Assembly (NCBI GenBank): GCA_045863235.1
Contig: BTUM01000003.1
Span: 96,001-160,000, forward strand
Origin: Candidatus Xenobia bacterium
GTDB lineage: Bacteria > Vulcanimicrobiota > Xenobia > Xenobiales > QWHO01
Reading direction: 5' to 3'
DNA: 64,000 nucleotides
Shown here piece after piece: positions 23,395 through 50,096 of the stretch (the first letter of the stretch is position 1; every line of letters begins with the position of its first letter). Position numbers and translations under genes: made by a program. The notes under the pieces were generated by a model that worked only from the letters and a program-made list of their open reading frames with translations, was not told where the DNA came from and searched no databases.

Positions 23395-25419
23395 TCAGGG
23401 CGTCTTCGTTCTCAAGACGACCCCGCCCACCCGCAGTTGGCCCTCCTGCACCTCGAGCGCGCTGGCCGTTCCGGCCGAGCGCAGCAGGTCGTCCGGGCTG
23501 CGGCCCAGGGCCAGCGACTCCAGAGCCGAGCGCAGGGCGGCCGGGAAGGCATCCCCCGGGTAGGCCTGCTTGAGCTCGGTGAAAACTTCCGTGGCGCGCT
23601 CCTGGTGACCGTCCGGGGTCAGGTGCTCGAGCAAGAGCAGGAAGTCTTTGAGGTCTTGCTCGGTCTTGACCTGGGCGAAGACGGCCCGGGCCTGGGACGC
23701 CTGGCGGCTGGGCACCAGGCCCTCCACCAGCTTCAGGTAGCGCTCGGCGGCAGGGGCGGCCGCCTCCCCCGGGCCGGCGCCCGAGACCAGGGCGGCCAGA
23801 TCTGCTTCCGGCTTGACCCCTTCGTAACGACCCAGGCGCTCCACGGCCTGGCACAGGACGGCGGCATCCCAGCCCCGCAGCTCGGCCACCGTCATGGCCG
23901 GCACGTGCTCGGTGCCCCCGTTGAGGAGGGCCAGGTCGGCCACCTTCTTGTAGGCCGACAAGGTGCGCTCCAGGTCGTGCTCGGCCAGAAGCTTGTAGTC
24001 GCGCTCGACCGAGTAGGTCGAAATGGAGAAGCCGTCCAGCTTCTCGCTGGCCGCCAGGCGGGTCAGCAGTTCGACCCGACCGGCCACCTCGCTGGCATTC
24101 ATGGGCTTGTCCAGCAGGGCCAGCAGAGTGCGCGCGTCGCGCGCACCGGCGCGGCGCGCCAGCGTCTGGAAGTGTCGGCTGCGCTCGGGCAGAGGCAGAG
24201 CCCACAGCCCCTGGCTGTGCTTGGAGCTGTCCAGGAACTCCAGGCTCTCCGGGGCTTCGCTCTGGAAGCAACCCACCAGCTCGATGAGGGTGTCCACGCG
24301 ATCGGTCTTCTTCTGATCCAGAAGCTTGCCGAACTGGGCTGCCGCGAACTGGCCTGGCTGACCATTGGAGAGCGAGCGGGCGTGGGGAATCGAGGCCTCC
24401 ACCAGGCGCATCAGGTCTTTGACGTCGCAATCCGGACGCTGGGCCGTGGCCAGCACGCTGGCGGCATCCGTCCCGCTCAGCCGACCTGACTTGACCAGCG
24501 GAACCAGGATACGGTCAGCCAGCTCGCAGGCTGGCCGGGCCCTCTCCAAAGCCCCCTGAACCGCCTCGGCGCTGGCCTCATTCAAGCTCGCCACGGGGAT
24601 CTTCTGGTAGAAGAGGTTGACCTTGTTTCTGCCATGGAGCGCGTTGTAGGTCGCCTCCGCATCCTCGACCCAACCCTGCGCCTGCAGGTCGCGCAGCGAC
24701 TGGCCAAAATCGGCGTCGCTGAGCGAGCGCGGATCGTGGGTCACGTGGAAGAAGTCCGCCTTCTGGTAGTGGTCGGGCTTGTGGTTCCAGCCCCCCAGCC
24801 GGGTGGGCCCCTTCAGCTCGGTGCTGCGATAGCTCGCGGAGTGAGCCGCTTCGAAGGCCTCCAGGCGCGAGAGCTTCTTCTTGTCCTCGACCACCTCGTA
24901 GCCGTGGTCATACAGGTTGCGCAGGCTGTTCTCGGTGGGCCCGGTGGGATCGGCCCTGAAGTAGAGCGTGTCCAGGGCGGCCAGGGTGGCGATCGAGCGG
25001 ATCTTTGTCGGGCTCGACTCGCCCGGAGGCTGGCAGAGCAGGTTGTCGATCTGACGAGGGTTGGCCGTCACTTTGTCCAGGGCCTCGCCGGGCGTCAGAT
25101 CCTGGTAAGCGCTTCCGTTCCACTGGCGGCCCAACCAGCTGCGCTCGGCCAGAAACTTGCCCCCCTCGGCCTGCACCTGCTGAAGCTGGGCCAGCAGCCC
25201 CTTGCGCTGCTCGGCCGAGAGCACCACCCCGGTCGGCCCTGGAGTCTGCCTGGCCGAAAGAAATCCGGCCGTCGCCAGCGAGCTCCACAGCCAGGCCCTC
25301 GAGCTGGATCCGGTGCCGGACAGGCTGACCTGATCGCCGCTGGCGGGGCTGCTGGCCGTCGGCACGGCCGCCCGGGGGCGGCTGAAAGGCACGCAGTGAC
25401 TCAGAGGGGTGACCCGCAT
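23395..25419 (-). CDS. Large orphan helical protein with C-terminal VGGV tag
   Basis: 674-aa ORF; Ser/Pro-rich N-terminus with GDQVSLS; ends LEVQEGQLRVGGVVLRTKTP. Confidence 0.8.
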   Translation of the reverse strand: MRVTPLSHCVPFSRPRAAVPTASSPASGDQVSLSGTGSSSRAWLWSSLATAGFLSARQTPGPTGVVLSAEQRKGLLAQLQQVQAEGGKFLAERSWLGRQWNGSAYQDLTPGEALDKVTANPRQIDNLLCQPPGESSPTKIRSIATLAALDTLYFRADPTGPTENSLRNLYDHGYEVVEDKKKLSRLEAFEAAHSASYRSTELKGPTRLGGWNHKPDHYQKADFFHVTHDPRSLSDADFGQSLRDLQAQGWVEDAEATYNALHGRNKVNLFYQKIPVASLNEASAEAVQGALERARPACELADRILVPLVKSGRLSGTDAASVLATAQRPDCDVKDLMRLVEASIPHARSLSNGQPGQFAAAQFGKLLDQKKTDRVDTLIELVGCFQSEAPESLEFLDSSKHSQGLWALPLPERSRHFQTLARRAGARDARTLLALLDKPMNASEVAGRVELLTRLAASEKLDGFSISTYSVERDYKLLAEHDLERTLSAYKKVADLALLNGGTEHVPAMTVAELRGWDAAVLCQAVERLGRYEGVKPEADLAALVSGAGPGEAAAPAAERYLKLVEGLVPSRQASQARAVFAQVKTEQDLKDFLLLLEHLTPDGHQERATEVFTELKQAYPGDAFPAALRSALESLALGRSPDDLLRSAGTASALEVQEGQLRVGGVVLRTKTP

Positions 25420-25459
25420 GGGGCCAGCCTAGTCGCTCATGCTTAAGAATTCCTGATAG
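25420..25459 (-). promoter_or_regulatory. Tandem-heptamer promoter, leaderless
   Basis: Minus strand: CTATCAG-gaat-TCTTAAG-N10-TAGGCT-N6-ATG. Confidence 0.65.
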
Positions 25460-25574
25460 CCTTGCAACGTCGCGGTTCCGGATTGGAAGCCGCCCTGGAG
25501 GATCAGATTGCAGCCACCCGAATCCTCTGGCAGAGTGATGCAAAAGCTCTCAAAGAGGGCTTTTGCATCAGCCT

Positions 25575-25684
25575 GCTAAGGCGCCGCGCGTTGAACACTT
25601 CAGGAATGGGCGCGGCGCCGTTCAGCAGATTGTCTACACTCCCGCGCGTTCCAATTCTGAACAGGTCAACGCGCGGGAGTGTAG
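25575..25684. repeat. Double-hairpin intergenic element, copy 2
   Basis: GGCGCCGCGC-20nt-GCGCGGCGCC, then perfect 17-bp inverted repeat CTACACTCCCGCGCGTT-17nt-AACGCGCGGGAGTGTAG. Confidence 0.9.
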
Positions 25685-25703
25685 GACTCGCAGGAGGCAC
25701 TTC

Positions 25704-25790
25704 ATGCTCAAGCGCCAGGGCCAGCGCGGCAAAACATCCGCCGACAGTCGCATCGGCACCAGGACCCGGAGAGGCGAGAGCGAGCCCTGA
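25704..25790 (+). CDS. Possible 28-aa basic leader peptide/uORF
   Basis: AGGAGG SD 6 nt before ATG; MLKRQGQRGKTSADSRIGTRTRRGESEP; its TGA overlaps the CTG of the next gene. Confidence 0.35.
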   Translation: MLKRQGQRGKTSADSRIGTRTRRGESEP

Positions 25791-27328
25791 GGGCCCATTT
25801 CTGCCCCAGTTGCGGGGCCAGGCTGCGCCGTCCCACCAGCCGAGAGCTGACCTGCGAGTATTGCGAGACCGTGCTCTGGGTGGAACCAGAAGCGATTCAG
25901 GAGGCTCCCCGCCCGCTCGACCCGGAGCCCGAGGCCTATCCCGAGCCGCCCGCGCGGCTCTGGCAGCAGTCCACGCCGCGGGTGGAGGTCTCGCTGATCG
26001 AGCAGGAGGTCCCCGACAGCCCGCCGGAGGCCTTCCTCGCCGAGCCGCTGCCCGACGAGCTGCTGGCCCTCGTCTACCTGCGCCTGGTGGATGACGACAA
26101 CCGCCCGGTGCGGGACTGGCCGCTGCCCCTCGAGCCCGTGCTGGAGAGCCTGCGACTGCATCGCGACCCCGGTCTCGCTGCCAACGCCGGGCTGCAGTGG
26201 TTGTGTGACCAGCCCCGGGGTTTCCCGCACCGACTCGAGATCGTCGTGGCCCTCTTCGACCCCACCCGCGCGTCGCTCCTCAGCTATGGCGCTGGTTGTC
26301 ACGACGCGCTCATCTGGCTCGACTGCGAAAGCGCCAGCACGGTGACCCTGAGCGCTCGGCCGCAGGGCCTGGATCGCAAGGTTCTGCGGGGCCGTGGGGA
26401 GGCGTTCGAGAACTGTCGGGCCGTGCTACTCGGCCCGGGGGACGCGGTCGTGCTGCTCTCGGCTGGAGTCCTGGGACGGCAGGGCGGCTCCAGCGAGGCT
26501 GCCCACGCCGTCTTCGAGGTGCTGCGCGAGGTGAGCGGGGAAGACCCGCTGCGCGTGGTGACGCTCGTCAAGAAGGCCTACTGGGAGCACGGCCGCCGCC
26601 GGGACCCGGCGCTCGCCCCCGTCGGCCCCGTGCGCGTCGCCGCGCTGCAGCCCGTGGCTCCGGCCCTGGCCGCCCTGCCCCCGTCGCGGCTCGTGCAGTT
26701 CGGCACGGCGCGCTTCCAGCTCGACCTCTGGGCCAACCCCCTGGACGAGCTCGAGATCCTGCCCCTGCATGGAGAGCGCTGGGTTCTGGTGTGGCTCTCG
26801 GGGGACGGCCTGGAGATTGCGAACGAGACGTTGAGTACGGTCCGGGAACGGGTGCTCGAGGTCCTGGACCGACGCGACCACGGGGACAACGAGGACCCGC
26901 GCGTGGCCGGGCGACGAGCTCTGGAAGGGCTGAACCTGCGGCTCACCCTGGTGCTCCTCTCCGACCGCTACGGCCGCGCCCACTACTATCGGGCCGGCCT
27001 CCAGCCTCCGATCTACCTCTCCCCGCGGGGCAACGGCACCCGCGGGGGATCCCTGCAGAGCTACGACGAGGGCGGCAGCGCCACGCTCGATCCCGGCGCC
27101 CGGCTGTTCTTTTTGGGTCGGCTTCCCATCGCGCGCGAGGTGCACCATGCCGACGACCTGGCCGAGCAATGGCCGGGGGGCAAGACCTCGCGACTGTACG
27201 CCGGCCTGAGCGAGCACTGGAAGACTCCCCCCGGCGAACAGGCGCTCTCTCGCCTGGCCCAGGCGGCACTGTCGGACCGCCCCGGGGTCGCGCTCGAGGG
27301 CCTCGGGTTGGTCACCGGGAGGCCGTGA
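25787..27328 (+). CDS. Zinc ribbon plus two degenerate SpoIIE/PP2C-like domains (probable CTG start)
   Basis: In-frame extension upstream of GTG 25871 encodes FCPSCGA...TCEYCET; LLGPGDAVVLLSAGV and LDPGARLFFLG resemble SpoIIE LxxGDxLxLxTDG. Confidence 0.65.
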   Translation: MRAHFCPSCGARLRRPTSRELTCEYCETVLWVEPEAIQEAPRPLDPEPEAYPEPPARLWQQSTPRVEVSLIEQEVPDSPPEAFLAEPLPDELLALVYLRLVDDDNRPVRDWPLPLEPVLESLRLHRDPGLAANAGLQWLCDQPRGFPHRLEIVVALFDPTRASLLSYGAGCHDALIWLDCESASTVTLSARPQGLDRKVLRGRGEAFENCRAVLLGPGDAVVLLSAGVLGRQGGSSEAAHAVFEVLREVSGEDPLRVVTLVKKAYWEHGRRRDPALAPVGPVRVAALQPVAPALAALPPSRLVQFGTARFQLDLWANPLDELEILPLHGERWVLVWLSGDGLEIANETLSTVRERVLEVLDRRDHGDNEDPRVAGRRALEGLNLRLTLVLLSDRYGRAHYYRAGLQPPIYLSPRGNGTRGGSLQSYDEGGSATLDPGARLFFLGRLPIAREVHHADDLAEQWPGGKTSRLYAGLSEHWKTPPGEQALSRLAQAALSDRPGVALEGLGLVTGRP

Positions 27329-27378: not shown

Positions 27379-29997
27379 TCAGAACCCCGGCCCGAGCGGA
27401 CGCACCGGGTACTCCGGATCGTTGGTGGCCAGCGCGATCCCGTTCTTGTAGGACGTTTCCCACTTGATGCTGCGCGTGGCGGGCTGGTACAGGCCAGCGA
27501 TGCCACTCTTATAGGAAGTTCGCCACTGCATCCCGGCCTGAGTGGGATCGTAAACTCCCGCCACGCCGTTCTGGTAGGACGTCTGCCACTCAACCTGGCC
27601 GGTGGACGGGTTGAAAGCCGCCCCTACGCCATTCTTGTAGGACGTTTGCCACTCCACCGTCCCGGTCTCGGGCACGAACACGCCCCCGACCCCGTTCTTG
27701 TAAGAGGTCTTCTCCTCGAACTCTCCGCTGATCGGGTTGTAGACCACCGCGATGCCGTTCATATAGGCTGTCTTCCGCTCCAGGCGGACCTGCTCGCCGG
27801 GCTCAGGGGGCGGCCCGAGCTGGAGCGCGGGAGTGATCCGGGGCGCCACCGGCCTGGTTGCCGAAGGTTCTGCGGGGGGGGAGTGGGCAGTCCCGGCGTT
27901 GCGCTTGCCCACCCGCACTCCGGCCACCACCAGATGGGTGGGAGTCTCGGCGATGGCGGCCACGGGCCGCTCCTCGCTGACGGCCGAGAGAATCGGGTCA
28001 TCGAGCAGCACGGCCAGTCCGTCCAGGTCGCCCGAGCCACGCACCACGGCTCCCAGCTTGCCGGGCGTCTGCTCGAGCGCGTGGTGCAGATTGGCGCGCC
28101 ACTGGGGACCGGCCCAGCTGCGAGCGGCCAGGGACACGGTCTCGAGCACGGGACGAAGCCCGCTGGAGCCCTCGGCCGTCAGACAGCGCAGCGCACCCAG
28201 GGCCAGGGCCGCCTGGCTCCAGGTGGCATTGGGCCCATCCACCGTGGTCAGCCGCAGCAGCACGGGGGCGGCCGGGTGGTCCATGGCCTTCAGCCCGGCC
28301 CGCGCCAGCCACAGCTTCTCGTTGATGTCGGGGGTAGCGCGAGCCATCATCAGGGCCACCTGGGCCGTGCGCCGGATGGGGTCAGCGGGAGCCTGCTCGA
28401 GCGCCCGGCAGCCGGCCAGCACCACGGCCGCCTGGTTGGCGGCCTGAGGCCAGGGCTGGCTGCGGACCGCCTCCAGCAGCGGGTCGTCCGAGCTGACCAG
28501 GGCCACCACCTCGGCAGGAGGCAGGAGCGGGCTCAGGTTCTCAAGCAGGGTGATAGGGTCTTCCAGGTGCTGCAGGCCGACCCGGAGGACCTCGGGATCG
28601 CTCACCCTGCCCAGCACCGTCAGGGCCGGGGAGGCCTCGGCCGCGGACAGGGCGGCCACCAGCCGCTCGGGCGGGAGGTGCTCGCTCAGATCTCGGGCCG
28701 CCTGGGCGGGCGAGAAGGGCTGGTCGAGCTGGGCCGCCGCCGCCCGGTAGACCGCTGCCTGCGGCTCGGCCTGGACCAGCCGCGTCACCGCCTGAGGGGG
28801 GCTCTGCTCCAGCATCCACTGGCCCAGCCGGACGGCATCCTCATCCGAGAGCGGGGTCTTGCCCAGCAGCTCGGCGGCCCGGCTTGCATGCGGCTGATCG
28901 GTGGTTGAGAGAGCCTGCAGAGCCAGGTTGGCGCGTCCTTCGAGCTCGGGGACCTGGTCGAGGAACTCGCGCGTGGCGGGCGTGGCCAGTTGGCGCGCCA
29001 GCGCCTCGCTCTCGGAGGGGGCAAGCAGGGGGTGGATCTTCTCCAGCAGCGCTCTGGGCTCGAGCTCGACATGGTCGAGCCCGGCCTGCAGGGCCGGAAG
29101 CTGGGAGACCTGACCCAGCAGCGTCAGGGTGGGATTCTCCGGCTCCACCGCCGCCAGGGCCTCCACCAGCTGACGCTCGGACACCCGGTGCTTGAGCTCT
29201 CGGCTGGCCCCGCTCAGGGTGAACTCGGGCTGCAGCAAGAGGTGGCCCGCGGCCTCATAGGGCGGCTCCGGCAAGGCCTTGAACAGCCTGCTGACGGGAT
29301 GAGCGTCCGGGAGCTGCTCGAGCATCCACGACCCCAGCACCTGCACGTCCTTGGGGGGCAGTTCGTCCAGAAGGTGCGCCAACGGGGGCTTCGACTCGAG
29401 GTTGGTCAGGCACCACCGCTCGGCCGTAAAGCGGCCTTCCCGGGTGAGCTCCAGGCCATCGAGGGAGCGGAGGAAGCTCTTCAGCTCGGGGTCGGCCAGC
29501 TCGTTCAGGGCCGGGCGCACGGGCAGATCGTGCAGCGCCCGGCTCCACTCGGCGCCCGTGCGGGGCTCGGGACGAGCGGCCTGGTGCAGCAGCCAGTCCG
29601 CCGAGGGGGCCGACGCCTTGAGGGCAGGATGAGCCGGCAGCACCTGCTCCAGCCCTCTCTCCACCTGACCGCGCAGGGCCGGGTCGGACAGGTCGCGCAG
29701 CGCCAGAGCCAGCCCCGCCAACCCCGTCAGGCTGGCACTCGTGTCCAGAGCCAGCGCCTGCAGCGAGCGCCGCATCACTGCCAGGCGGCTCGTCGGCGTG
29801 GCTTCGGGGGGCGATGCCACCCGGGCCATGGCCAGCATCACCTGCTTCTCTGAAGGGGTCTCCATCTGCTCGAGCCGGGTCAGGCAATCCTCGCCGGCCT
29901 GGAGCTGCAGCTCTTGCTTCTTCCAAAATTGCAGCCGCCACGAGCTGCACGCCTGCAGCCCGCGGTTGGCTTCCTGGGAGAATCGGCTCAGCTCCAC
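27379..29997 (-). CDS. Large helical-repeat protein with internal VAGV tag and C-terminal 21-aa repeat domain
   Basis: 872-aa ORF; duplicated LG.WMLEQ segment; six T[SA]YxxG[IV] repeats. Confidence 0.85.
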   Translation of the reverse strand: MELSRFSQEANRGLQACSSWRLQFWKKQELQLQAGEDCLTRLEQMETPSEKQVMLAMARVASPPEATPTSRLAVMRRSLQALALDTSASLTGLAGLALALRDLSDPALRGQVERGLEQVLPAHPALKASAPSADWLLHQAARPEPRTGAEWSRALHDLPVRPALNELADPELKSFLRSLDGLELTREGRFTAERWCLTNLESKPPLAHLLDELPPKDVQVLGSWMLEQLPDAHPVSRLFKALPEPPYEAAGHLLLQPEFTLSGASRELKHRVSERQLVEALAAVEPENPTLTLLGQVSQLPALQAGLDHVELEPRALLEKIHPLLAPSESEALARQLATPATREFLDQVPELEGRANLALQALSTTDQPHASRAAELLGKTPLSDEDAVRLGQWMLEQSPPQAVTRLVQAEPQAAVYRAAAAQLDQPFSPAQAARDLSEHLPPERLVAALSAAEASPALTVLGRVSDPEVLRVGLQHLEDPITLLENLSPLLPPAEVVALVSSDDPLLEAVRSQPWPQAANQAAVVLAGCRALEQAPADPIRRTAQVALMMARATPDINEKLWLARAGLKAMDHPAAPVLLRLTTVDGPNATWSQAALALGALRCLTAEGSSGLRPVLETVSLAARSWAGPQWRANLHHALEQTPGKLGAVVRGSGDLDGLAVLLDDPILSAVSEERPVAAIAETPTHLVVAGVRVGKRNAGTAHSPPAEPSATRPVAPRITPALQLGPPPEPGEQVRLERKTAYMNGIAVVYNPISGEFEEKTSYKNGVGGVFVPETGTVEWQTSYKNGVGAAFNPSTGQVEWQTSYQNGVAGVYDPTQAGMQWRTSYKSGIAGLYQPATRSIKWETSYKNGIALATNDPEYPVRPLGPGF

Positions 29998-30037
29998 GAG
30001 ACCAGGTTAACCCGGGGGGCTGAAAGATTGTTGACCC
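29998..30037 (-). promoter_or_regulatory. Tandem-heptamer promoter, leaderless
   Basis: Minus strand: GGGTCAA-caat-CTTTCAG-N10-TAACCT-N6-GTG. Confidence 0.65.
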
Positions 30038-36151: not shown

Positions 36152-36155
36152 TGCC

Positions 36156-36194
36156 CTTCCAAATTCTTTGAGGGTCAGCCCCTACCATTCCCCC
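36156..36194 (+). promoter_or_regulatory. Tandem-heptamer promoter, leaderless
   Basis: CTTCCAA-att-CTTTGAG-N10-TACCAT-N6-ATG. Confidence 0.65.
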
Positions 36195-37964
36195 ATGGTG
36201 GTGCACTCCTCGACCTGTGCCCTCTTCGTCCGGCCCACCCGGGCGACGGCGCCGCCTGAGCGCGATCCTGTGAGTGAAGCCCTGGCTGAGGTGGATGCCT
36301 CGGCGCGCAACGAGAAGCTCCTCAAACTGTGCTCTGAAGCCCGCACCAACCCTGATCTCTCGGCATGCCTGGGACGCCGTCAAGCCGAGCTGTGGAGCCT
36401 TCCCCTCAGCAGCGACTACGCTTGCATCGACCTGGTGGAACGTCTGGCCCCGCACTGTCCTCCTCCCGAGAGCCTGGACTGGCTCTTCCAGAAATATGGT
36501 CAACGGTTAGCGGTGGAGGGCCCGAGTATCGGAGCAGCCCGCCGCTCCCTGGAGCAAATCCTGACCAATCGCCCCGACTTCGTGGACGAAGCCGCTGCCC
36601 GGCTCCTCGAGCCCTCGCCGGAAACAGGCTTCACGCCCGCCCAGCTGGTCTGTCTGAAGGACCTGGTCAGCGATCGCGGCTGGCGACCGGACGTCGAGCA
36701 GAAGGGCAGGCTACTGGAGCGCCTGGACACCGTCGACCTTCTGGGCAGAGAAGGCCAGGATCTTCTCAAGGTGCTGGTGGAGCTGAAAAAGGCTTGCCCT
36801 GAAGAGGTCCCGCCCGGTCTGGGTCGCGAGCTGCTCGAGAGGCTTCTGGCTGAGCCCGAACCGCCTCTTTACACCGTGGCAGGCGGCCCAAATGTGGGCT
36901 TCCTGTCTCAGCCCATCTACCAGATGGCCTTCCCGGACGAGAAGCTGGAGGGCGAGTTGCTGTCGCAGGTGGGTCAGGGAAGCCAGAATGCTCTGCTCGT
37001 GCTGGCGGGCTCGATGACTCTGACCGGAGGAGCCGCACGACTGGGCCGCCAGCTCGAGGCCGAGTTCGGACGAGCCCACGAGCCCGCCTGGATGGACCAG
37101 GTCTTGCTGCACGTGTTGGACCATTGGCTCGAGCAGCCCTGTGCTACCGCAGACGACGCTCTCGAGCCCCACCTGGCGCTGGGCAGGCGCTATGAGGCGC
37201 TGGCTGCCCGCGAGGAGCCCCTCTCGCCCCGCTGCAAACCCGCCCCGGTGAGCGTGGCGCCCGAGTGGCTGGCCGGGATGTCCGACTCGATGGACACGGT
37301 GGAGTCGCAGGCCCGGCTGGTGGTCGCCTTCCGGGCCGCCGGGCAAGATCCGGCACTGGCCGGAGCGCTGCTCGGCGAGCTGACCGAGTGGCTCAACCAG
37401 AATCGGTCTCCTGCCTGGACGGAAGCAGCCGCGGCCTTCCGCGGCCTCAAGGACCTCCAGGTGCGAGAGCAACTGCGCCAGGCGACCGACCTGCGCGAGC
37501 TGCTGACCGCCTTCAGCCCGGACGCCACCTGGATGAATGCGGCCCAGGAGCGCTACCCGGCCGAATTGGCCCATCTCAAGCCCCTGCTCAAGGGATTGTC
37601 CCAAGAAGAGCAAGTTGCTCTCGCCCACTCTCTGGCCCACCGCAAGGAGCTGGAAGGCGACCTCGGATGCCTGGCCAGCCTGGCCAATCTGCCAGCCTCC
37701 GAGCGCCCGGAGGCCATCGCGCAGGTCCTGCGCGCACCCGCCTTCTTCACGCGGCTCGACCAGATCGCTCCTCTGCGCGTCAGCTTGCCGGCCCACCAGG
37801 AGCTGTGCCGCCGGATCGAAAGCGGGATGGAGCCCGAGGTCGCCTATCAGCAGGTGGCCGCTCCCCTGCTGCTGGACTGCGTGGCAGGCGACTGCTGCAA
37901 GGCGGTGGGAACGGTGGACGGCTACCTGGTGGTCGGGGGCTCGCGGCTGCGCAACCGCTGCTGA
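36195..37964 (+). CDS. Large orphan helical protein with C-terminal VGG tag
   Basis: Leu/Glu/Ala-rich ORF ending VGTVDGYLVVGGSRLRNRC. Confidence 0.8.
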   Translation: MVVHSSTCALFVRPTRATAPPERDPVSEALAEVDASARNEKLLKLCSEARTNPDLSACLGRRQAELWSLPLSSDYACIDLVERLAPHCPPPESLDWLFQKYGQRLAVEGPSIGAARRSLEQILTNRPDFVDEAAARLLEPSPETGFTPAQLVCLKDLVSDRGWRPDVEQKGRLLERLDTVDLLGREGQDLLKVLVELKKACPEEVPPGLGRELLERLLAEPEPPLYTVAGGPNVGFLSQPIYQMAFPDEKLEGELLSQVGQGSQNALLVLAGSMTLTGGAARLGRQLEAEFGRAHEPAWMDQVLLHVLDHWLEQPCATADDALEPHLALGRRYEALAAREEPLSPRCKPAPVSVAPEWLAGMSDSMDTVESQARLVVAFRAAGQDPALAGALLGELTEWLNQNRSPAWTEAAAAFRGLKDLQVREQLRQATDLRELLTAFSPDATWMNAAQERYPAELAHLKPLLKGLSQEEQVALAHSLAHRKELEGDLGCLASLANLPASERPEAIAQVLRAPAFFTRLDQIAPLRVSLPAHQELCRRIESGMEPEVAYQQVAAPLLLDCVAGDCCKAVGTVDGYLVVGGSRLRNRC

Positions 37965-40521: not shown

Positions 40522-42048
40522 TCAGGAGCGACGGCGCGCGTCCAGGAAGTGCCATTCGGAAGACTCACCAAACTGGAGCCGGTCCCCATGGCGCAGGCGC
40601 GTCTCGGACTCGACCACGATCCCGTTGACCAGAGTCAGGCCGCCGCCCAGTTTGCGCACGCAGTAGTTTCCCTCCGAGCGCACCACCAGGCAATGGCGCC
40701 GAGACACGGTCTCGTCGGCAAGCACCAGGTCGCAGTCAGGAGCCCGCCCGACCAGAGTCTGAGAGCGGTCGAGAGAAAACCGCTGGTCCCCGCCCGCGAG
40801 CTCGAGCCAGTAGCGGCTGGCAGCCGGAAGCGGGGTGGGCGCAGGAGGAGTAGCGGCTGAACGCGAGCGGCGTTCGCAAACTTCGAACCGCATCAGGGTC
40901 TGTCCCACCTCCACCAGCTCCCCGCCCTCCAGAGCCAGCTTGCCCACGACGGGCAGTCCGTTGACCAGCACCCCACCGCTCAGCAACAAACGGCCCTCCT
41001 GTCCTTCGAGCCAGAAGCAACGGCAGGGGATCGAGCTGTCATCCAGATCGATGTCGTTGTCGTGAGGTCCCGGTCCCCCTACTGCCAGTGGGCGACCGGC
41101 CGAGAGCAGGGCCGCGAACAAGGGCACGGTCTTGCCCGCCTCGGGCCCCTCCAGGAAGTGCAGAAGGTAGGCGGGGCGAACCTGGGCCGAGCGGGTTCGA
41201 GACTGGTCCAGCCGGCTGGGGCGAAGATCCCGAAGAGCAAGCCGCGGATTGCCCAGGAGCCAGAAGGCCAGATCGGTGCGCCAGGAATCGCGAAACTTTT
41301 CCCGAGAACCGCCCACGGCCTCACCCAGCTCGGCGCCCTCGCGCATCTGGGCCAGGATGTCGCTCACGAAAGCCGCGCAGCACTCCCAGGGCACCTCCCA
41401 CTGGGAAGCGAGGATGGCATCGACGCCGAGATTGGACAGCCCCCGGGTCAATGCTTCCGAGCCGGGCCCGTGCAAGACCACCAGCCGGGGCACGTAGTGT
41501 CTTCCCACCGAGCGAAAGGGCTCAAAGCTGCCCGAGGCCAGGACCACGGCATACTCCTCTGAGGAGAGCACGGAGCGGAACGCGGCGGCCGGGTGCCTGG
41601 AAACCTGAAAGTGGGCGTCCAGGCCGGCCGGAGCCGGGTCGGCGCTATCGGCCACCAGGGCCGCCAGGGCGGCCCCCTCGACTCGCGGCACGACCTCTTC
41701 CCCGGCCCGCCGCACCCTTCGCGCCGTCGAGCGACGGTAAGCCAGGGGAACCCCCGCGATGCGGGCCAGCTCCCAGGGCGTCTCTCCAGCCAGCCAGCAG
41801 TTCACCGGCTCCTTACATAGCACCTGAGTGAGATTGGCGGGAAAGCAGTTCCCCAGCGAGTCGCCCAGTCGGTCCAGAGCCTCGGAGAATCCGCCGGCAG
41901 CCTGCTGAAGGGCGACCAGCGACTCCTTCTGGCTGCGCATCTCGACCGGCAGACGCCGGGCTTCAAAATGGCTCTCCTGGCCGTCGCGAAGGAGGCGCCA
42001 ACGAATCGAATCGGGCAGGGGCTCCTCGAAGAACAGGTCGAGGCTCAT
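40522..42048 (-). CDS. Degenerate CHAT-like domain plus two FHA domains
   Basis: PWEL, ASQWEV and LLGNP CHAT-like motifs; canonical FHA VGRAPDCD...VSRRHC...TLVNG; the first FHA lacks the GR/SRxH residues. Confidence 0.8.
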   Translation of the reverse strand: MSLDLFFEEPLPDSIRWRLLRDGQESHFEARRLPVEMRSQKESLVALQQAAGGFSEALDRLGDSLGNCFPANLTQVLCKEPVNCWLAGETPWELARIAGVPLAYRRSTARRVRRAGEEVVPRVEGAALAALVADSADPAPAGLDAHFQVSRHPAAAFRSVLSSEEYAVVLASGSFEPFRSVGRHYVPRLVVLHGPGSEALTRGLSNLGVDAILASQWEVPWECCAAFVSDILAQMREGAELGEAVGGSREKFRDSWRTDLAFWLLGNPRLALRDLRPSRLDQSRTRSAQVRPAYLLHFLEGPEAGKTVPLFAALLSAGRPLAVGGPGPHDNDIDLDDSSIPCRCFWLEGQEGRLLLSGGVLVNGLPVVGKLALEGGELVEVGQTLMRFEVCERRSRSAATPPAPTPLPAASRYWLELAGGDQRFSLDRSQTLVGRAPDCDLVLADETVSRRHCLVVRSEGNYCVRKLGGGLTLVNGIVVESETRLRHGDRLQFGESSEWHFLDARRRS

Positions 42049-42088
42049 CGCGAGCAACTTTGCTGGAGTCTCCGGGGAACCCTCCAGG

Positions 42089-43825
42089 TCAGCCCTTGCG
42101 CTTGAGGCGCACCGAGCCCACCTGCACTCCCCGGGGGGTCAGCTCCACGCGCTGGGCCGGGTCACTCCTGCCGGGCACCAGGTAGTCGAAGGTGGCCCGC
42201 TGGCGGGCCTGATCGGCCGGCACGCCCTGCTCGATCAGACGCTCCACTTCGGTGCAGGCGCGCAGGATGGCCTCATGTTCGGCCTCCCCGCCCAGGCGGG
42301 CGCTGAACTCGCGGAACTGGTCGCCGCCATAATAGGCGGCGTATCGCCTGGCAGGGTCGGCGGAGTAGTGCGCGGCCCAATTGTCATCGGGCAAGCGCTG
42401 GCTCCACAGCTCGTGCGCATCAGGCACCTGACAGGCCAGCAGGCGCTCCACCAGCGGTCGGGCCTGCTCGACAGGCGTGCCAGCGAGCTGCTCTTTCAGC
42501 TGGGCTATCTCCTGGCGGCGAGCCTCGGAGGTGAGAGCCTGGACGGGCCCGCTCAAGGCGTGCGCCAGGTAAGGCTGGAGGGCCTGCGTGACGCCGGTCG
42601 AGCCCAGCATGTGAGCAAGCCAGAGAGCCTCCTGGGCCGAGCGAGGCAGGTCGGAGAGGTCGGCCTTGCTGGTCCGGGCCGCCTGGACGAACTCCTCGAG
42701 CAGCTCGCTCGCCTGCTGAGCCTTCTCCTCGGGGGTGAGCTGGGGGCCCAGACGCTCGAGCACGGGACGGGTCTGGAACTCCAGGCTACTGGGGATGACC
42801 CGGTGCACCACGCTGCGCAGATACTCTCGGGCCGCCTGGATCTTCCCGGTCACGTCTGGAGCGTCGCCCATGCGGCGCATCTGGGCGTTCTGGTGCTCGC
42901 TGCGGAACGTGTCCACCAGGCTGTCCAGGGCGGCGTTGTCGTGGCGCCTCTCCAGCTCTTGCATGGCGATGGGGCGAATCAGCTCGCGGTGGCGGCTCAC
43001 CGAGCCCAGCGCCACCAGGGCCCGCTGGTCGGCCGGCGAGAGTTTCTGGATGTCGCCCTGGTAGTTGCTCTGGAGCCTTTCAGCCAGACTTTGCGAGAAC
43101 TCCTGATCGAGCAGGGCGGCATAAGCCTGGCTGGTCACCCCCACGGCCATCACGTCCCCGGCGTACAGTCGGCGCAACTCGGGCTCGAGCAGAAGGCGGT
43201 CGAACAGGTTCTGGCGCAGGCCGTCCAGCCCGTTGGGGATCCGCCCCAGCGCCTCCAGGCCCTGCCAGAACTCGGGCCCCGGCTTGCCGGGCTGAAGCAG
43301 CCGGGCGGCCAGCCAGGGACGATGTCGGGGGGCGGCGGTCTGGCTGAGCACGCGCCAGTCCTCCAGGCTCTGATTGTGGTTCCGCGACAGGATGCAATCG
43401 GCCACGCGCTCGCCCCACTCGGGATGCTGCTCGAGCTGCTCGAGCACCACCCGGGCGCCGCCCTCGTTGGGAAGCACCTCCAGGACCAGCAACTCGGGGC
43501 TGACCGTTTCGGGAAAGCGCTCCAGCAGGGAGCGGTAGAACTCCGCCTGGCCCTCGCGCGCTCCGTGACGGCTGGTGGTGCTCAACAGCGCCTCTTTGTG
43601 AGGGGCGAAGTGCCGGCTCACCTGGGGCCTCTGGCTGGCCAGGATGGCACTCAGCGCCTGAAAGGCCCGGCGGTCACCCGCCTGGTTGGTCAACTCGAAG
43701 GCCACCTGATCGGCCAGGCCCTGGTCAGTCCAGGTCAGCCGGTCAAACGTCTCAGCCGCCTGCTCGCGCTTGAGCGAGCGGCACAGAAACCTGGCCCGAG
43801 GACTGCTGAGCTGCACGGAGTCCAT
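42089..43825 (-). CDS. Large orphan helical protein with C-terminal VGSV tag
   Basis: ORF from ATG 43825 (MDSVQLSS) ending VELTPRGVQVGSVRLKRKG. Confidence 0.8.
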   Translation of the reverse strand: MDSVQLSSPRARFLCRSLKREQAAETFDRLTWTDQGLADQVAFELTNQAGDRRAFQALSAILASQRPQVSRHFAPHKEALLSTTSRHGAREGQAEFYRSLLERFPETVSPELLVLEVLPNEGGARVVLEQLEQHPEWGERVADCILSRNHNQSLEDWRVLSQTAAPRHRPWLAARLLQPGKPGPEFWQGLEALGRIPNGLDGLRQNLFDRLLLEPELRRLYAGDVMAVGVTSQAYAALLDQEFSQSLAERLQSNYQGDIQKLSPADQRALVALGSVSRHRELIRPIAMQELERRHDNAALDSLVDTFRSEHQNAQMRRMGDAPDVTGKIQAAREYLRSVVHRVIPSSLEFQTRPVLERLGPQLTPEEKAQQASELLEEFVQAARTSKADLSDLPRSAQEALWLAHMLGSTGVTQALQPYLAHALSGPVQALTSEARRQEIAQLKEQLAGTPVEQARPLVERLLACQVPDAHELWSQRLPDDNWAAHYSADPARRYAAYYGGDQFREFSARLGGEAEHEAILRACTEVERLIEQGVPADQARQRATFDYLVPGRSDPAQRVELTPRGVQVGSVRLKRKG

Positions 43826-43869
43826 AGCTTCCCGCAGCGTACTCGGACGCGATGAAAGGGGGTTGAAAG
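43826..43869 (-). promoter_or_regulatory. Tandem-heptamer promoter
   Basis: Minus strand: CTTTCAA-cccc-CTTTCAT-N10-TACGCT-N10-ATG. Confidence 0.7.
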
Positions 43870-46531: not shown

Positions 46532-46890
46532 GCCTTCTGATAGAGGGCTGCCACGGCTCCAGCCGGGTCGCGCACGACGGCAAAGCGATCCTGACCGGCC
46601 GCTCCCCGCACTCCCCCGATCAGCTCGCCCCCCCGTCGACGGGCGGCCTCCAGGCTCTGGTCCAGGTCGCTGACCACAAAGTAGGGAATCCACATCGGCG
46701 GAAGCTCGGCGTTGCTCCCCCGCGCGTGGCAGATTCCCGCCACACCCTGCCCCTGAGGATCTTGCATGACGTAGTCGTCGTAGTCGCCCATGCTCAGCCC
46801 TTCGGCCTTCCACCCCACAACCTCAGCGTAGAAGTCGCGCAGGGTGGTGGCGTCCTCCACGGTGATATCCAGCCATCCGATGGTGCTCAT
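46528..46890 (-). CDS. VOC/glyoxalase family protein
   Basis: IGWLDITV..A..LRDFY, WIPYFVVSDLD and FAVVRDPAGA motifs. Confidence 0.92.
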   Translation of the reverse strand: MSTIGWLDITVEDATTLRDFYAEVVGWKAEGLSMGDYDDYVMQDPQGQGVAGICHARGSNAELPPMWIPYFVVSDLDQSLEAARRRGGELIGGVRGAAGQDRFAVVRDPAGAVAALYQKA

Positions 46891-46960
46891 GGAGGGGCCT
46901 TCGGGTCGTCGCGGCCAGCTCTCCTTCTCAGATGGAGGCGCAAACGAAGCGGCCAGACCA

Positions 46961-47404
46961 TTACGGCCACAGTGGAATGCTGTGCCTTTCCGGCTCGGTC
47001 TTGGCCGTGAATGGCTTTCGATCCAGAGTGCCTTTGATCACGTAGCGAGTCTGAATGACCGTGATGGTGCCCATGTAGGTATAGGTCCAGAAGCACTCGC
47101 GCGATTTCCCCTTATCAAGAGAGGCAGGGAGATCGGTCACCTGAAGAGCCATCGGCACCATGGAGCCATCGATGTCTTGCAGCTTGATGGGCTGGCCATT
47201 TCCGTCCAGGAACTCGACCGTCACCTGCAAGCCGCTCAACTTGCCCGAGCCCAGGTTGTTCAGGGTAAAATGGCCGTCGAGAGAGCGGTTTTCCCGACCG
47301 CGCACAACGGACGTATCGGTCACTTTCACCGGGCTGTCCTGGGCCGGCAGGGGGCTGCCAACCATCCCGAGCAGGGTAATGAAGAAAAGCCACCACGATT
47401 TCAT
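46961..47404 (-). CDS. Secreted beta-sandwich protein (FxLYD-like)
   Basis: Signal peptide; G..TLNNLG...L..V.VEFLDGNG pattern; AAGAGG SD. Confidence 0.65.
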   Translation of the reverse strand: MKSWWLFFITLLGMVGSPLPAQDSPVKVTDTSVVRGRENRSLDGHFTLNNLGSGKLSGLQVTVEFLDGNGQPIKLQDIDGSMVPMALQVTDLPASLDKGKSRECFWTYTYMGTITVIQTRYVIKGTLDRKPFTAKTEPERHSIPLWP

Positions 47405-47694
47405 TTGGGCCTCCGCCTCTTACAGTCCCTCGCATTGGTTGTGCGATGAATTCTCAACAGGTTGAACTTCGTCGCATCGCCCGTGCCACAACACTTTGGA
47501 AGCGGTTCGAAACAAGTTTCTCACCGCACGTTACGTGGCACGGTCAATGCGACGAAGTTTAAGCGCATCTGGGGCATTCCCTGTTCTTCCTGGCCTGCTG
47601 GCTCTCCTCGGCCAAGAAGCGCGGGCAAGCCTTCAAGCCCCCCTCCCTCGTGGTTGGTCAGCTCTCCGGGCTCAGGACTTCCCATCCCGCCGAC

Positions 47695-47735
47695 CTTTCA
47701 GGTTTCTTTTCAGCCACTTACGGCATACTCCAGGC
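47695..47735 (+). promoter_or_regulatory. Tandem-heptamer promoter, leaderless
   Basis: CTTTCAG-gtttc-TTTTCAG-N10-CATACT-N6-GTG. Confidence 0.7.
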
Positions 47736-50096
47736 GTGATCGTGGGTCATTCCATGCCTTTCTCCAGAGCGCCCGTGCCGGCGGCTGCGACCGCATCTGT
47801 TCCTGAGCAGAGCGCGGTCGAGCCGGTCGACGGCTTCAGCCCGGTCTCAAAGTCGCCACCGGCCCTGCCGGCGTCGGTGGGTCCGGCCAGCGAGCTGGCC
47901 TTCCGGCTCCTGGGCGGCAGCCTGGGGCCGACCGTGCAGGCCGCCACCCGCACGGTGCTCGACGAGCTCGACTACAACCTGCGGCGCACCGCGCCGGGGC
48001 GAGAACTGGCCAGGGACCTCGCGCTCGAGCAGCCCGATCGGCCGAGCAACGCCATTCCGGTCGGGTCCGAGCTGACCCGGGGGCTGCGTGACAGGCTGAT
48101 CGGCGGTCGCACCCTGAGCTCCAGCCAGAGCTCGCTGCTGGCCCGCTCTCTGGTCATGACCAGCAAGTACCTTGGCCTGGACGACCGGCCGCTGATCGCT
48201 CCCCGGTCGGTCGAGGCCGCGCCACCCCCTGCCGATGCCAGGCTCGAGCCGGGGTACCACTGCGAAGTGACGCAAGTGGCGGTGGACCAGGTGCGCTGGC
48301 GGGGAGTCAGCGATTACGCCCCCTCCCGGCTCGGTCCCGTGGCGGTCCTGCTCGACGACCTCGGCCCAGAAGACCGAGTGCGCTTCTCCAACCTGCCCCT
48401 GGAGCAGTCGCTGCAGGGCTTGCCAGCCCCCACAGCCGCCGTGCGCTTGAACCTGCCCGTAAGCTCGTGGGCGCGGAGCCTGGACCTCGTCGAGCACCAG
48501 GATGGGTCGAAAACGCTGGTCGTGGGCGAGCTGCCCGGCCGCATCGCGCATCGCCACTACCAGCTGCTGGTCAAGAAGTACATGCATGGCAAGCCAGACG
48601 CTCCTGCCATGTCGGTGGTGGAGGCCCCCTCCGCCTATCAGGCCAGCTACGGTCAGCTGGCCGAATTCTTCGCCCGCAACGCCTCCGAGCTCGGCCAGGT
48701 GGATGCCGTGGCCGTGGGCTACGCGCGCACCTTCCGGGAGACCTGGACCGAGGTTCCCCGTCAACGAGTGTTCGATTCGACTTCGCCCTGGAAGGCGGAT
48801 GTCTATACCCTCCCCAACGGGAAACGACTGGCCGCCCTGACCAGCCAGGGCAACTTCCAGGGGGAGATTCTAGGGGAGGCGCTCAAGCGGCTGATTCAGG
48901 ATCATCCCTCCATCCGCCAGGTCTTTCTGGCTGGATCGGGGGGCTCGCTTCACGTTCGCGATCCTTATAGCATCGTCATCCCGGACCGGATCGGAGAGAC
49001 AGAGAACCTCCTCTCCACCCGGACCACCAACCTGGTCCACGAGAGCGTGCTCTCGCCCCTGGCGGAAACGCCCGAGGCCCTCAGCGATGCTGCCCGTCGC
49101 GGAGTGACCACCCTGGATATGGAGTTCGGCCACGCGGCCAGGGCCCTGCAGGGGCTGGGCGTGGAGCTCGGGGTGGGGGTGCTGGCCACCGACTTCCCTG
49201 TCGAGCGTCGTTTCAGCCCCGACGCCAGTCTCACGCGCCAGGACACCGAGCGCAAGTACTCCCACATCCATCGCTACACCCGGGCCGTCTACGAGGCGCT
49301 CACCTCCGGCCAGCCCCCGCTGGAGCACCCCCTGGAGCAGCACCTGGGTCGCCCTCTGGGAGCGCTTTCTCGCGAGAACCTCCAGCGCGAGCTGCAGATC
49401 ATGGGAGAGCTGGGCGAGGCAGAACGGGGACTCTTCGAGCGCCTGCTGGAGCTCAAGCCGCACTATTCGTTCCGCATGACCGAAGCGCGCCTGCGGCGCG
49501 TGCTGGAAGATGGCGTTTTGCTCTCCACGGGCCAGGTGTCGCGCCTGCTCGAGCGTCCCGTCTCGCCTTACACCCCCGGCGTGGAGGACGAGATGTTCGG
49601 TGCTTACGAGCACACCTTCGGTGCGCTCGGCTTCGGACAGGGCGACGAACGCTACGGCCCGGTCGAGGTTCGCCTGCGCCCAGAGGTGTGGAAGGCGCGC
49701 TCCTGGGCCTCGTTTGCCTCGGGGTGGAAGGCGCTGAGCCGGGTCAGCGAGGAGCCGCTCGAATATGATCGGGCTGACCCCGAGCTGCTCTCGGCCGCAC
49801 GCGAGCGGTTCTCCCACTGGGTGGTGACCCCGCCCGACTATAACGCCACGGTTGCTGCCGGGATCGTGGGCCGCCTCGGGAAGCTTCCGCCCGAAGTCCG
49901 CGAAGAGCTGCTCAAGGCCTCCTCGGTAGAGCTTCCGGCCCTGCTCGTCAAGCACCGACTGTGGTATCTGGAAGGAAAGATCCATGGCGCCCTCAACCTC
50001 GAAGATATCGAGCGGCTGATCGTGGAGCCGACCTTTCCCGAATCCCTGCGCGAGCTCTGTCTCCAGCGGGGCATTGCGGTGGAGGTCCGCTCCTGA
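47736..50096 (+). CDS. Multidomain protein: low-complexity N-terminus, nucleoside phosphorylase-like domain, DUF3626-like C-terminus
   Basis: FLAGSGGSL, TTLDMEF and LATDFP (PNP fold); VLEDGVLLS, FGAL, RYGPV and YLEGKIHG...DIE (DUF3626-like). Confidence 0.7.
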   Translation: MIVGHSMPFSRAPVPAAATASVPEQSAVEPVDGFSPVSKSPPALPASVGPASELAFRLLGGSLGPTVQAATRTVLDELDYNLRRTAPGRELARDLALEQPDRPSNAIPVGSELTRGLRDRLIGGRTLSSSQSSLLARSLVMTSKYLGLDDRPLIAPRSVEAAPPPADARLEPGYHCEVTQVAVDQVRWRGVSDYAPSRLGPVAVLLDDLGPEDRVRFSNLPLEQSLQGLPAPTAAVRLNLPVSSWARSLDLVEHQDGSKTLVVGELPGRIAHRHYQLLVKKYMHGKPDAPAMSVVEAPSAYQASYGQLAEFFARNASELGQVDAVAVGYARTFRETWTEVPRQRVFDSTSPWKADVYTLPNGKRLAALTSQGNFQGEILGEALKRLIQDHPSIRQVFLAGSGGSLHVRDPYSIVIPDRIGETENLLSTRTTNLVHESVLSPLAETPEALSDAARRGVTTLDMEFGHAARALQGLGVELGVGVLATDFPVERRFSPDASLTRQDTERKYSHIHRYTRAVYEALTSGQPPLEHPLEQHLGRPLGALSRENLQRELQIMGELGEAERGLFERLLELKPHYSFRMTEARLRRVLEDGVLLSTGQVSRLLERPVSPYTPGVEDEMFGAYEHTFGALGFGQGDERYGPVEVRLRPEVWKARSWASFASGWKALSRVSEEPLEYDRADPELLSAARERFSHWVVTPPDYNATVAAGIVGRLGKLPPEVREELLKASSVELPALLVKHRLWYLEGKIHGALNLEDIERLIVEPTFPESLRELCLQRGIAVEVRS

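Follow-up and report, generated by a model that had tools for sequence, protein, structure and literature searches.

A 64-kb stretch of DNA from an uncultured Candidatus Xenobia bacterium (assembly GCA_045863235.1, contig BTUM01000003.1, positions 96,001 to 160,000 of the forward strand) raises the question of why five genes that lie apart from one another should share a single promoter layout, and why four of the five proteins that they encode should also carry one and the same short motif. The whole of this stretch is referred to here as the window (G000:C3:96001-160000), and the assembly from which it comes (G000; 8.36 Mb in 166 contigs, 65.8% G+C, 97.6% complete) as the source genome. An earlier note on the same DNA had read the five genes as part of a regulon of exported cargo that is handled by a dedicated machine encoded elsewhere. 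The coincidence of the promoter with the motif, a C-terminal tag, is real, statistically strong and genome-wide, and we infer that a co-regulated set of exported cargo is the best supported account of it, the candidate routes being ranked in the order type III secretion, docking after export, a type I-like exporter and intracellular targeting.

Five separated genes share one promoter layout

The five genes start at 25419(-), 29997(-), 36195(+), 43825(-) and 47736(+), do not adjoin one another and are interspersed with genes for an amine oxidase, a TPR/PEGA protein, KatG, an FHA protein, a glycosidase, a C11 peptidase and others. In the DNA upstream of each, two TTCAG-like half-sites are followed by a spacer of about 10 nucleotides (nt), a TAnnnT hexamer and the start codon, with the distance from this -10 hexamer to the start codon being 6 nt in four of the five and 10 nt in the remaining one (43825(-)). 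A scan of both strands of the window with a weight matrix made from 100 genome-wide sites, only one of which (that of 29997(-)) comes from the window, returned exactly five sites at a cut-off of 15 bits, each 5' of one of the five genes and at the very start codons that had been proposed for them. None of the five proteins has a Pfam or NCBIfam family. Three of them end in the tag (the products of the 25419(-), 36195(+) and 43825(-) genes; their ends read ...LEVQEGQLRVGGVVLRTKTP, ...VGTVDGYLVVGGSRLRNRC and ...VELTPRGVQVGSVRLKRKG) and a fourth, the product of 29997(-), carries it internally. The shared motif had been rightly assigned to four of the five proteins, but its length had been given as 18 amino acids (aa), where the unit proves to be about 23 residues, and the 29997(-) copy is non-terminal.

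The promoter and the tag across the source genome

Genome-wide, the promoter reads TTCAG-N6-TTTCAG-N10-TAnnnT-N6/7-ATG. TTTCAG is the most enriched hexamer near the starts of tagged open reading frames (ORFs), being found at 70 of 142 as against 434 of 5,060 long ORFs, and when starts are aligned on it, TTcAG falls at positions -10 to -6, TTTCAG at 0-5, TAnnCT at 16-21 and ATG near 28-30, the half-site TTCAG sitting 11 bp 5' of the main box. The core pattern TTTCA[GA]-N9-11-TAnnnT occurs at 176 sites of the genome and at 35 in the reversed sequence, and 100 of the genomic sites open an ORF of at least 80 aa that starts 3-12 nt after the core pattern. Within these 100 promoter ORFs, the spacer from box to -10 hexamer is 10 nt in 93, the distance from the -10 hexamer to the start is 6 nt in 46 and 7 nt in 26, and the start codon is ATG in 79, GTG in 20 and TTG in one. 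Of the remaining 76 sites, many stand 5' of genes whose leaders measure 30-60 nt and whose N-termini are similar, which indicates that the promoter-defined set exceeds 100 genes.

Given that the -10 hexamer lies only 6-7 nt from the ATG, the mRNAs of the promoter set are predicted, from sequence, to begin at or beside the start codon, i.e. to be leaderless. The flagellar structural genes of the source genome have, by eye, ordinary Shine-Dalgarno leaders. Four RNA-library runs overlap the 25419(-) and 29997(-) genes, but these are assembled contigs and hence not evidence of transcription, of its starts or of its levels. ORFs of 64-71 aa (MIDNN...LRVSSSNQYLMSS... and MTNQTENFYQVL...) also stand behind good boxes, with leaders of 9-126 nt, at G000:C27:16895, C51:45225, C133:509 and C133:2470.

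The tag comprises 23 residues, V/I-x-E-x4-V-x-V-G-G-V-R-V-R/K-R/K-R, and its profile opens with a linker rich in G, P, A and S. A loose form of the pattern has 152 matches among 52,419 six-frame ORFs, 85 of them at most 8 residues from a stop codon. A profile hidden Markov model (HMM) built from 83 seeds, with matches accepted at 13 bits or more and a tag end at most 30 residues away from the C-terminus, identified 142 ORFs of the source genome; the tag lies at most 16 residues from the C-terminus in 137 of them, mostly with 0-12 residues after it, and five more ORFs carry it 170-220 residues from the end. Conservation amounts to 87% at V/I6, 60% at E8, 93% at V/L13, 89% at V/I15, 97% at G16, 83% at G17, 77% at V18, 54% at R19 and 100% at V/L/I20, followed by R/K at positions 21-23 (R/K23 in 89%). 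The tag matched nothing in Pfam or NCBIfam when the five window proteins, the 60 strongest tagged proteins and, at lenient thresholds, five strong ones were searched, and full-text literature searches returned nothing describing such a tag or regulon.

When both ends are masked, BLAST groups the 203 proteins that have the tag or the promoter into 128 clusters, 81 of which include a tagged protein, and it is this presence on 81 unrelated cores that marks the tag as a portable module. Shared ends could instead be the mere trace of a recent family expansion or of cassette recombination, without any sorting role, since some of the tagged proteins are indeed paralogous (with clusters of 23 and 13 members). 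Such a trace is nevertheless very improbable on three counts: first, the number of unrelated cores; second, the tag is held at the extreme C-terminus with near-invariant positions; and third, its copy number is similar in all five genomes of the genus g1 considered below.

The DNA signal and the protein signal had been claimed to pick out the same genes in the window, and genome-wide they do choose overlapping sets: 39 of the 100 promoter ORFs are tagged, which against 5,631 gene-like ORFs gives an odds ratio of 33.7 (p=4.9e-38), and weaker versions of the tag end ten more of the 100 by eye. Conversely, 71 of the 142 tagged genes lie above the controls' 99th percentile on the weight matrix, as do 34 of the 103 outside its training set. 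Run over the whole genome, the tag HMM and the promoter matrix co-occur far above chance, and it is judged very likely that the genes are truly co-regulated and that the portable tag has a function.

The window genes in detail

The promoter of the 25419(-) gene (25426..25459, minus strand; 19.5 bits on the weight matrix) is a degenerate direct repeat, ATCAG...TTCTTAAG, followed by a 10-nt spacer, TAGGCT, 6 nt and ATG. The gene (23395..25419, minus strand) encodes a tagged orphan protein of 674 aa with the leader MRVTPL...GDQVSLS, for which a deep alignment gave three homologues at 86-90% identity, all of them annotated as hypothetical, and its C-terminal tag (ALEVQEGQLRVGGVVLRTK; 23404..23472, minus strand; HMM 19.3 bits) is followed by two residues.

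The 29997(-) promoter (30004..30037, minus strand) matches the core pattern, scores 27.4 bits and reads TCAAC...TTTCAG-N10-TAACCT, 6 nt, GTG. Translation and the tag HMM show the 872-aa product (27379..29997, minus strand) to have an internal tag (AIAETPTHLVVAGVRVGKR; 27901..27969, minus strand; HMM 19.4 bits), 173 residues from the protein end, and then a linker and SYKNG (MORN-like) repeats, the tag region reading IAETPTHLVVAGVRVGKRN. This protein belongs to a small paralogue family (G000:C3:76161-78410, C32:68044-70242 and C135:163-2361), the members of which have a helical '...RFWK...' N-terminus, SYKNG/MORN-like repeat ends and, in the source genome, an internal tag; in another family of the order, where it has a counterpart (L144, genome G013), the promoter is kept too.

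At 36195(+) the promoter (36155..36188, plus strand; 17.5 bits) reads TTCCAA...TTTGAG-N10-TACCAT, 6 nt, ATG, and from this promoter-defined ATG a tagged orphan protein of 589 aa is encoded (36195..37964, plus strand), which has a faint, sub-cut-off HEAT match and a C-terminal tag (AVGTVDGYLVVGGSRLRNR; 37890..37958, plus strand; HMM 18.2 bits) followed by one residue. The 43825(-) promoter (43836..43869, minus strand; 23.9 bits) reads TTTCAA-N5-TTTCAT-N10-TACGCT, 10 nt, ATG. Its gene (42089..43825, minus strand) encodes a tagged orphan protein of 578 aa whose tag (RVELTPRGVQVGSVRLKRK; 42095..42163, minus strand; HMM 18.2 bits) again precedes a single residue, and whose predicted fold has HEAT/ARM-like solenoid neighbours: the Atlas model has a pLDDT of 0.66 and the HEAT-like neighbours have TM scores of 0.30-0.49, which makes them a lead only. 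The description of the window proteins as mostly helical, which was weakly checked, finds its echo in these solenoid neighbours, at TM scores below 0.5. Adjoining this gene, a 511-aa protein (40522-42057(-)) has a C-terminal FHA domain and also matches a YscD cytoplasmic-domain model. The fifth gene, 47736(+), has the promoter TTTCAG-N6-TTTCAG-N10-CATACT, 6 nt, GTG (47696..47729, plus strand; 18.5 bits) and encodes the untagged member of the group (47736..50096, plus strand; 786 aa), which has no Pfam family and begins with the leader MIVGHSMPFSRAP...VDGFSP.

N-termini and products of the set

The window proteins had been described as lacking an obvious Sec signal, and this holds for the whole promoter set: by a hydropathy test (17-residue window, Kyte-Doolittle at least 1.8, first 30 aa) rather than a signal-peptide predictor, a hydrophobic Sec-like N-terminus is found in 1 of the 100 promoter proteins as against 13% of 1,974 Shine-Dalgarno-led control genes. 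Relative to the same controls, the promoter proteins more often start with M-x-I/V/L (58 of 100 as against 21.5%) and more often contain the motif D/E-x-V/F/I/Y-x-L/P/I/V-S/T/G/R (21 of 100 as against 8.4%; p=2e-4), at a median position of 31, and P, Q, S, D and R are over-represented in their residues 2-40. The GDQVSLS and VDGFSP of the window proteins fall within a D-x-V/F-x-L/P-S-like form of this motif. These simple motif statistics replaced a strict leader HMM, which was dropped because the length of the leader is too variable.

Among 60 untagged promoter genes, 27 have a Pfam match at E<=1e-4, some of these matches falling below curated cut-offs. They include endonuclease I, 5'-nucleotidase, trehalase, alpha-amylase, GDPD, C11, C92 and C26 peptidases, LOG and histidine phosphatase, together with a glycerol-3-phosphate-oxidase-like DAO, an acyltransferase, a DHH phosphoesterase, PAD-like, CHAD and thioredoxin-reductase-like proteins and PGA_cap; a protein kinase match probably reflects a chance promoter site inside a gene. 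Long N-terminal extensions precede several of the enzyme domains, and Sec signals are usual in many of these enzyme kinds. Among the 60 strongest tagged proteins are 46 without a Pfam family, ten PQQ/WD40 beta-propellers, three InhA-like MAM proteins, one of which also has a discoidin domain, and one sub-threshold match. It is the enzyme kinds of the untagged set, together with the MAM, discoidin and beta-propeller domains of the tagged proteins, that point to export: the set is likely to consist of exported proteins, and on balance we infer that its products leave the cytoplasm.

An alternative is that the proteins stay inside the cell, the leader and tag directing them to a compartment or scaffold or acting as a signal for conditional degradation or storage in a set that is induced by stress or in development. 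Proteins without a recognisable family, such as 46 of the 60 strongest tagged ones, would suit such a role, several tagged proteins are helical-repeat or coiled-coil-like, and the tag superficially resembles the cargo peptides of encapsulins. However, the encapsulin shell family (Linocin_M18) has no match in the source genome, and the idea of an encapsulin cargo peptide was rejected on this ground; 142 cargo proteins of up to 1,838 aa would in any case misfit a nanocompartment, and the endonuclease I, 5'-nucleotidase, trehalase, amylase, MAM and discoidin domains of the set are of the sort usually seen outside the cytoplasm. Retention inside the cell is regarded as quite improbable.

Distribution in the lineage

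The order-wide comparison covers 31 genomes (genus g1, n=5; family f2, n=13; family f3, n=13), with the tags of each genome counted among its best 150 candidates. On this basis the tag HMM has 89-142 matches in each of the five g1 genomes, none in any of the 13 f2 genomes and two in a single one of the 13 f3 genomes. Across a phylum sample of 201 genomes (E<=1e-6), many matches occur only in the five g1 genomes and a single match in 4 of the 196 others, so that the g1 form of the tag is almost confined to genus g1. The promoter pattern reaches further. It has 45-102 matches in g1, against 1-4 for a backwards control, and within family f2 it has 49-77 in g5 and 37-50 in g4, while it stays near the control level in g2 and in most of family f3. 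In one g5 genome (G013), twenty box sites were read; the leaders behind them are alike (e.g. MKIQPVRTF...DRVTLS and MKVQALLNS...DQVSLGS), and 5 of 19 box ORFs close with a related but acidic-ended tag (e.g. EEDTVTIGDQVLFLEPLQE and EEDRLKVGEREVPVRQD). The variant, E-E-x-V-x-V-G-D/N/E-x-x-V...D, is found at the G013 loci L133, L134, L136, L143 and L145. Given that the same promoter and leader accompany a variant tag in G013, promoter and leader appear to be older than the g1 form of the tag.

A tag whose end is basic in g1 and acidic in G013, behind an unchanged promoter and leader, raises the possibility that the leader is the export signal, by whatever route, and that the tag serves only after export, in docking or retention at the surface, on a filament or on a partner joined through a beta-strand. 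Several further points favour this possibility: the tag is optional, the enzymes of the promoter set having the leader without it; in five proteins it is internal, with another domain after it; and modelling gives it the form of a small beta-meander that stands apart on a flexible linker. In the AlphaFold model concerned, of a tagged propeller (alignment of 12 paralogues; mean pLDDT 76.7), the propeller itself is predicted with confidence, pLDDT drops below 50 in residues 1-23 and in the linker 342-361, and the tag forms three short low-confidence strands detached from the domain. Against docking, a position at most 16 residues from the C-terminus in 137 of 142 tags is typical of free-end signals, no partner or anchor was identified, and the acidic tag of G013 does not fit an electrostatic anchor to an anionic envelope. 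A role confined to docking is considered unlikely.

A possible SARP-type activator

The layout of the promoter bears on the kind of regulator that may act on it. As described in a study of SARP promoters (PMC10936776), these promoters have direct repeats with a period of 11 or 22 bp, the distance between the 3' repeat and the -10 element is 8 bp and the activator substitutes for -35 recognition. The present repeats have an 11-bp period (TTCAG at -10 to -6, the main box at +1 to +5 of TTTCAG), and TTTCAG is followed by 10 nt before the -10 hexamer in 93 of 100 cases, a distance that becomes 8 bp only under the heptamer framing TTCAGnn. The source genome has 19 SARP DNA-binding modules (Trans_reg_C + BTAD), mostly in proteins of about 800 aa with receiver domains, and a SARP-family activator is suggested because 11-bp direct repeats abut the -10 hexamer in a genome with that many modules. 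One of the 19 modules lies in the window itself (61099..63372, minus strand), in a response regulator that combines a REC domain with a SARP-type (BTAD) DNA-binding part; this protein exemplifies the proposed class and is a candidate only; another SARP module adjoins the flagellar rod genes on contig C74. Per genome, 4-30 such modules are found in families f1 and f2, and one in 11 of the 13 small f3 genomes. Before the nine SARP genes checked, the box, in its leaderless model, is absent.

Candidate export routes

No machine is encoded beside the five window genes, as the earlier note had supposed in placing it elsewhere. The secretion loci that it had proposed to look for were found in part: a flagellar-type III system is present, but in a marker-family search of the 31 genomes VirB4 was absent from all 31 and so was TssC, on which ground the type IV and type VI routes were rejected. 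Full-length FlhA occurs in 31 of 31 genomes. In the source genome, a locus on contig C27 (G000:C27:58000-80000; L121, L122) encodes FlgB, FlgC, FliF, FliG, FliH, FliI, FliJ, a FliK-like protein, a lytic transglycosylase, a 271-aa FlgE/F/G-like protein, FliM, FliN, FliO, FliP, FliQ, FlhB and FlhA, and FlgF, FlgG and a FlgJ-like rod-binding protein are encoded on contig C74 (G000:C74:1-4200; L123), both gene sets lying outside the window. Flagellin was not found in the source genome or in 24 of the 30 other genomes of the order, and the six flagellin-bearing genomes all have a second full FlhA. This flagellar-type III system is the sole Sec-independent protein exporter detected in the source genome. 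Full-text literature searches returned nothing on type III secretion in Eremiobacterota.

Two papers on early flagellar subunits (PMC8983047, PMC10936197) describe an N-terminal signal of small hydrophobic residues at positions 2-5, a motif for recognition by the gate that comes at least 26-30 residues later and, in a subset of the subunits, a C-terminal targeting signal that is proposed to bind FlhA or FlhB. Type III secretion is the first choice of route because the M-x-I/V/L start, the motif near residue 31 and the optional tag share this layout, which is a resemblance. Its use by the set is put forward tentatively, as somewhat less likely than not.

Upstream of flgB (C27, L122 ~13364-13450), GCCGATA stands after TAA-rich sequence and has, by eye, a sigma-28-type look, and contig C74 opens, next to the rod genes, with a sigma-70 region-2 fragment. 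Stand-alone paralogues of the FlhA cytoplasmic domain (FlhA-C) number five in the source genome (C80:28012-29544, C3:26973-28325, C1:377631-379007, C106:14839-16857 and C107:13658-15910); two of the five are fusions with the N-terminal domain of FliG, and relatives have from 1 to about 16 such paralogues per genome. They could be extra docking platforms.

Three identical tandem genes for an 81-aa protein lie at G000:C27:55989-57051 (L121:9989-11051), with further matches of the family on C69 and C78 and at C3:179399, C74:12719 and C27:54351. The family, with a mean column identity of 70%, is present in 27 of 31 relatives, repeatedly at 1-6 kb from the conserved flhA, and its 199 public homologues are all annotated as hypothetical; a 533-aa neighbour ends in a segment homologous to the 81-aa protein, and one gene copy near flhA has a TTTCAG box 5' of a Shine-Dalgarno leader. 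AlphaFold predicts a single continuous helix (residues 3-80, pLDDT 83). The protein had been entertained as a needle-type helical hairpin, which was rejected given that only one helix is modelled and that a PDB sequence search gave nothing below E=0.47; it is a candidate for an exported structural subunit.

The tag could alternatively be a type I-like C-terminal signal, read by a dedicated ABC exporter with its membrane-fusion protein and outer-membrane channel, in which case the type III system would be unrelated to the set. Type I substrates have uncleaved C-terminal signals, lack Sec signals and can be very large. Tagged proteins here reach 1,838 aa, and the type III core has no phyletic link to the tag. 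However, RTX repeats (HemolysinCabind) have no match anywhere in the source genome and C39 domains are confined to two short ORFs, which led to rejection of the RTX type I route, though not of type I substrates without RTX; no ABC or membrane-fusion domain occurs among 120 scanned proteins, a systematic search for genus-specific ABC transporters not having been made; and a type I signal leaves the shared N-terminal features and the untagged members unexplained. A type I-like exporter is considered improbable.

Type III export of a SARP-driven set has in turn several observations to contend with. The earlier note had looked to a phyletic pattern that would tie a secretion locus to the regulon, and this expectation failed: the type III core is present in all 31 genomes, including the 13 of family f3, 12 of which lack the tag, and since the core occurs with or without the regulon, in genomes without tag or promoter as well, the pattern gives no specific support. 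A search for the P-ring protein FlgI found none, the three secretins are all encoded on contigs other than those of the type III genes, and no path across the outer membrane suggests itself. The leaderless model of the box is not found at the type III structural genes, flhA, the five FlhA-C paralogues or the nine SARP genes, flgB appears by eye to have a sigma-28-like -10 element, and the box has been assigned to no particular one of the 19 SARP modules. With regard to the cargo, 71 of the 142 tagged genes have no recognisable box, the leader is loosely conserved, with the second N-terminal motif in just 21 of 100 promoter proteins, and 24 of the 100 have a hydrophobic segment at residues 25-110, possibly an anchor that depends on Sec/YidC and follows an extended N-region.

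Discussion

It is suggested that the set is switched on by a SARP/OmpR-type activator acting at the direct-repeat promoter, and that leaderless mRNAs transcribed from the box genes would yield Sec-less cargo, mostly tag-ended, which would leave the cell through the flagellar type III system that lacks flagellin. If the parallel with early flagellar subunits applies, residues 2-5, which are small and hydrophobic, and the hydrophobic motif near residue 31 may act at the type III gate, and the optional C-terminal tag may be a targeting signal bound by FlhA, by FlhB or by a stand-alone FlhA-C paralogue. Taken as a whole, from leaderless SARP-type-driven regulon to export of tagged cargo via a flagellin-less type III system, this account is given slightly less than an even chance. 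Of the regulon of exported cargo proposed for the window, the promoter set, the portable tag and the Sec-less N-termini stand; export is likely, and its route is a proposal.

A bolder proposal is that the order Xenobia as a whole retains a flagellum-derived type III machine that has lost flagellin, and that in the large-genome lineages this has become a mass exporter, moving 150-200 effectors and exoenzymes, expressed from leaderless mRNAs, under one SARP-type switch and a three-part cargo code. Such a code would consist of the hydrophobic N-terminus, the gate motif near residue 30 and a hairpin tag that co-evolves with its receptor by genus. This proposal, which would make of it a third functional branch of type III secretion beside flagella and injectisomes, is rather doubtful. 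If the main account holds, about 2-3% of the genes of the source genome would form one switchable arsenal, with signals that occur in no database model or paper found, and a catalogue of the secretome or effectorome could be read from sequence for a phylum with one cultured member. It would also provide a case of a flagellar type III gate re-used for general export and would show secretion signals diversifying between genera, with a basic or an acidic end behind the same promoter and leader, while SARP-type 'sigma adaptation' would reach past actinobacterial antibiotic clusters to a genome-wide, predicted leaderless set. The portable tag might then serve as a handle for export or docking. Even without the type III route, the three coinciding signals constitute a tractable and undescribed sorting problem.

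Comparison with known systems

The Dot/Icm systems of Legionella and Coxiella serve hundreds of dispersed, mostly orphan effectors with a C-terminal signal of acidic and then hydrophobic residues, and in the PmrA regulon a direct-repeat box for a response regulator lies beside the -10 element of many Dot/Icm effector genes. The present set differs in that VirB4 was not found in the 31 genomes and in that its tag is far more sharply conserved. As a lineage-restricted, basic-ended tag on many unrelated proteins, the element resembles the signals of PEP-CTERM/exosortase, LPXTG/sortase and GlyGly-CTERM/rhombosortase and the T9SS domain. Those C-terminal sorting systems, however, require Sec signals, which the tagged proteins lack; unlike sortase- and exosortase-type signals, the tag has no transmembrane helix and only 3-4 residues between G-G and the basic cluster, and its 23 residues compare with about 80-100 for the T9SS C-terminal domain. 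With the cargo-loading peptides of encapsulins it shares a short C-terminal form, a hydrophobic-Gly-small-hydrophobic core and a basic end.

The promoter is most readily compared with the afs box of Streptomyces AfsR, in which (PMC10936776) two repeats of 11-bp period likewise abut a TAnnnT-type -10 and replace the -35 element; unlike the afs box described there, the repeat is TTTCAG, and more than 100 predicted leaderless genes of a member of the Eremiobacterota are concerned rather than a biosynthetic cluster. For the proteins, the closest parallel lies in the signals of Salmonella FlgD, FlgE, FlgC and FlgG, which (PMC8983047, PMC10936197) are likewise Sec-less, with a small hydrophobic N-terminus, a second motif about 30 residues in, which may have its counterpart in the motif of 21 of the 100 promoter proteins, and an optional C-terminal signal; that signal depends critically on a hydrophobic residue and an arginine, and residues of both kinds occur in the tag. 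As in the genomes that encode those subunits, a flagellar-type export gate is encoded in the source genome. The cargo, by contrast, consists here of more than 100 unrelated, non-flagellar proteins and enzymes, and at the C-terminus a conserved, beta-hairpin-like Gly-Gly tag takes the place of the D0 helix of flagellar subunits. Flagellar gates that export non-flagellar proteins, such as Cia and Fed in Campylobacter, or that lack a flagellin filament, such as the basal bodies of Buchnera, are familiar. If the route is type III, the present system would exceed these in scale by about a hundred-fold and would add to them dedicated tags and a promoter of its own.

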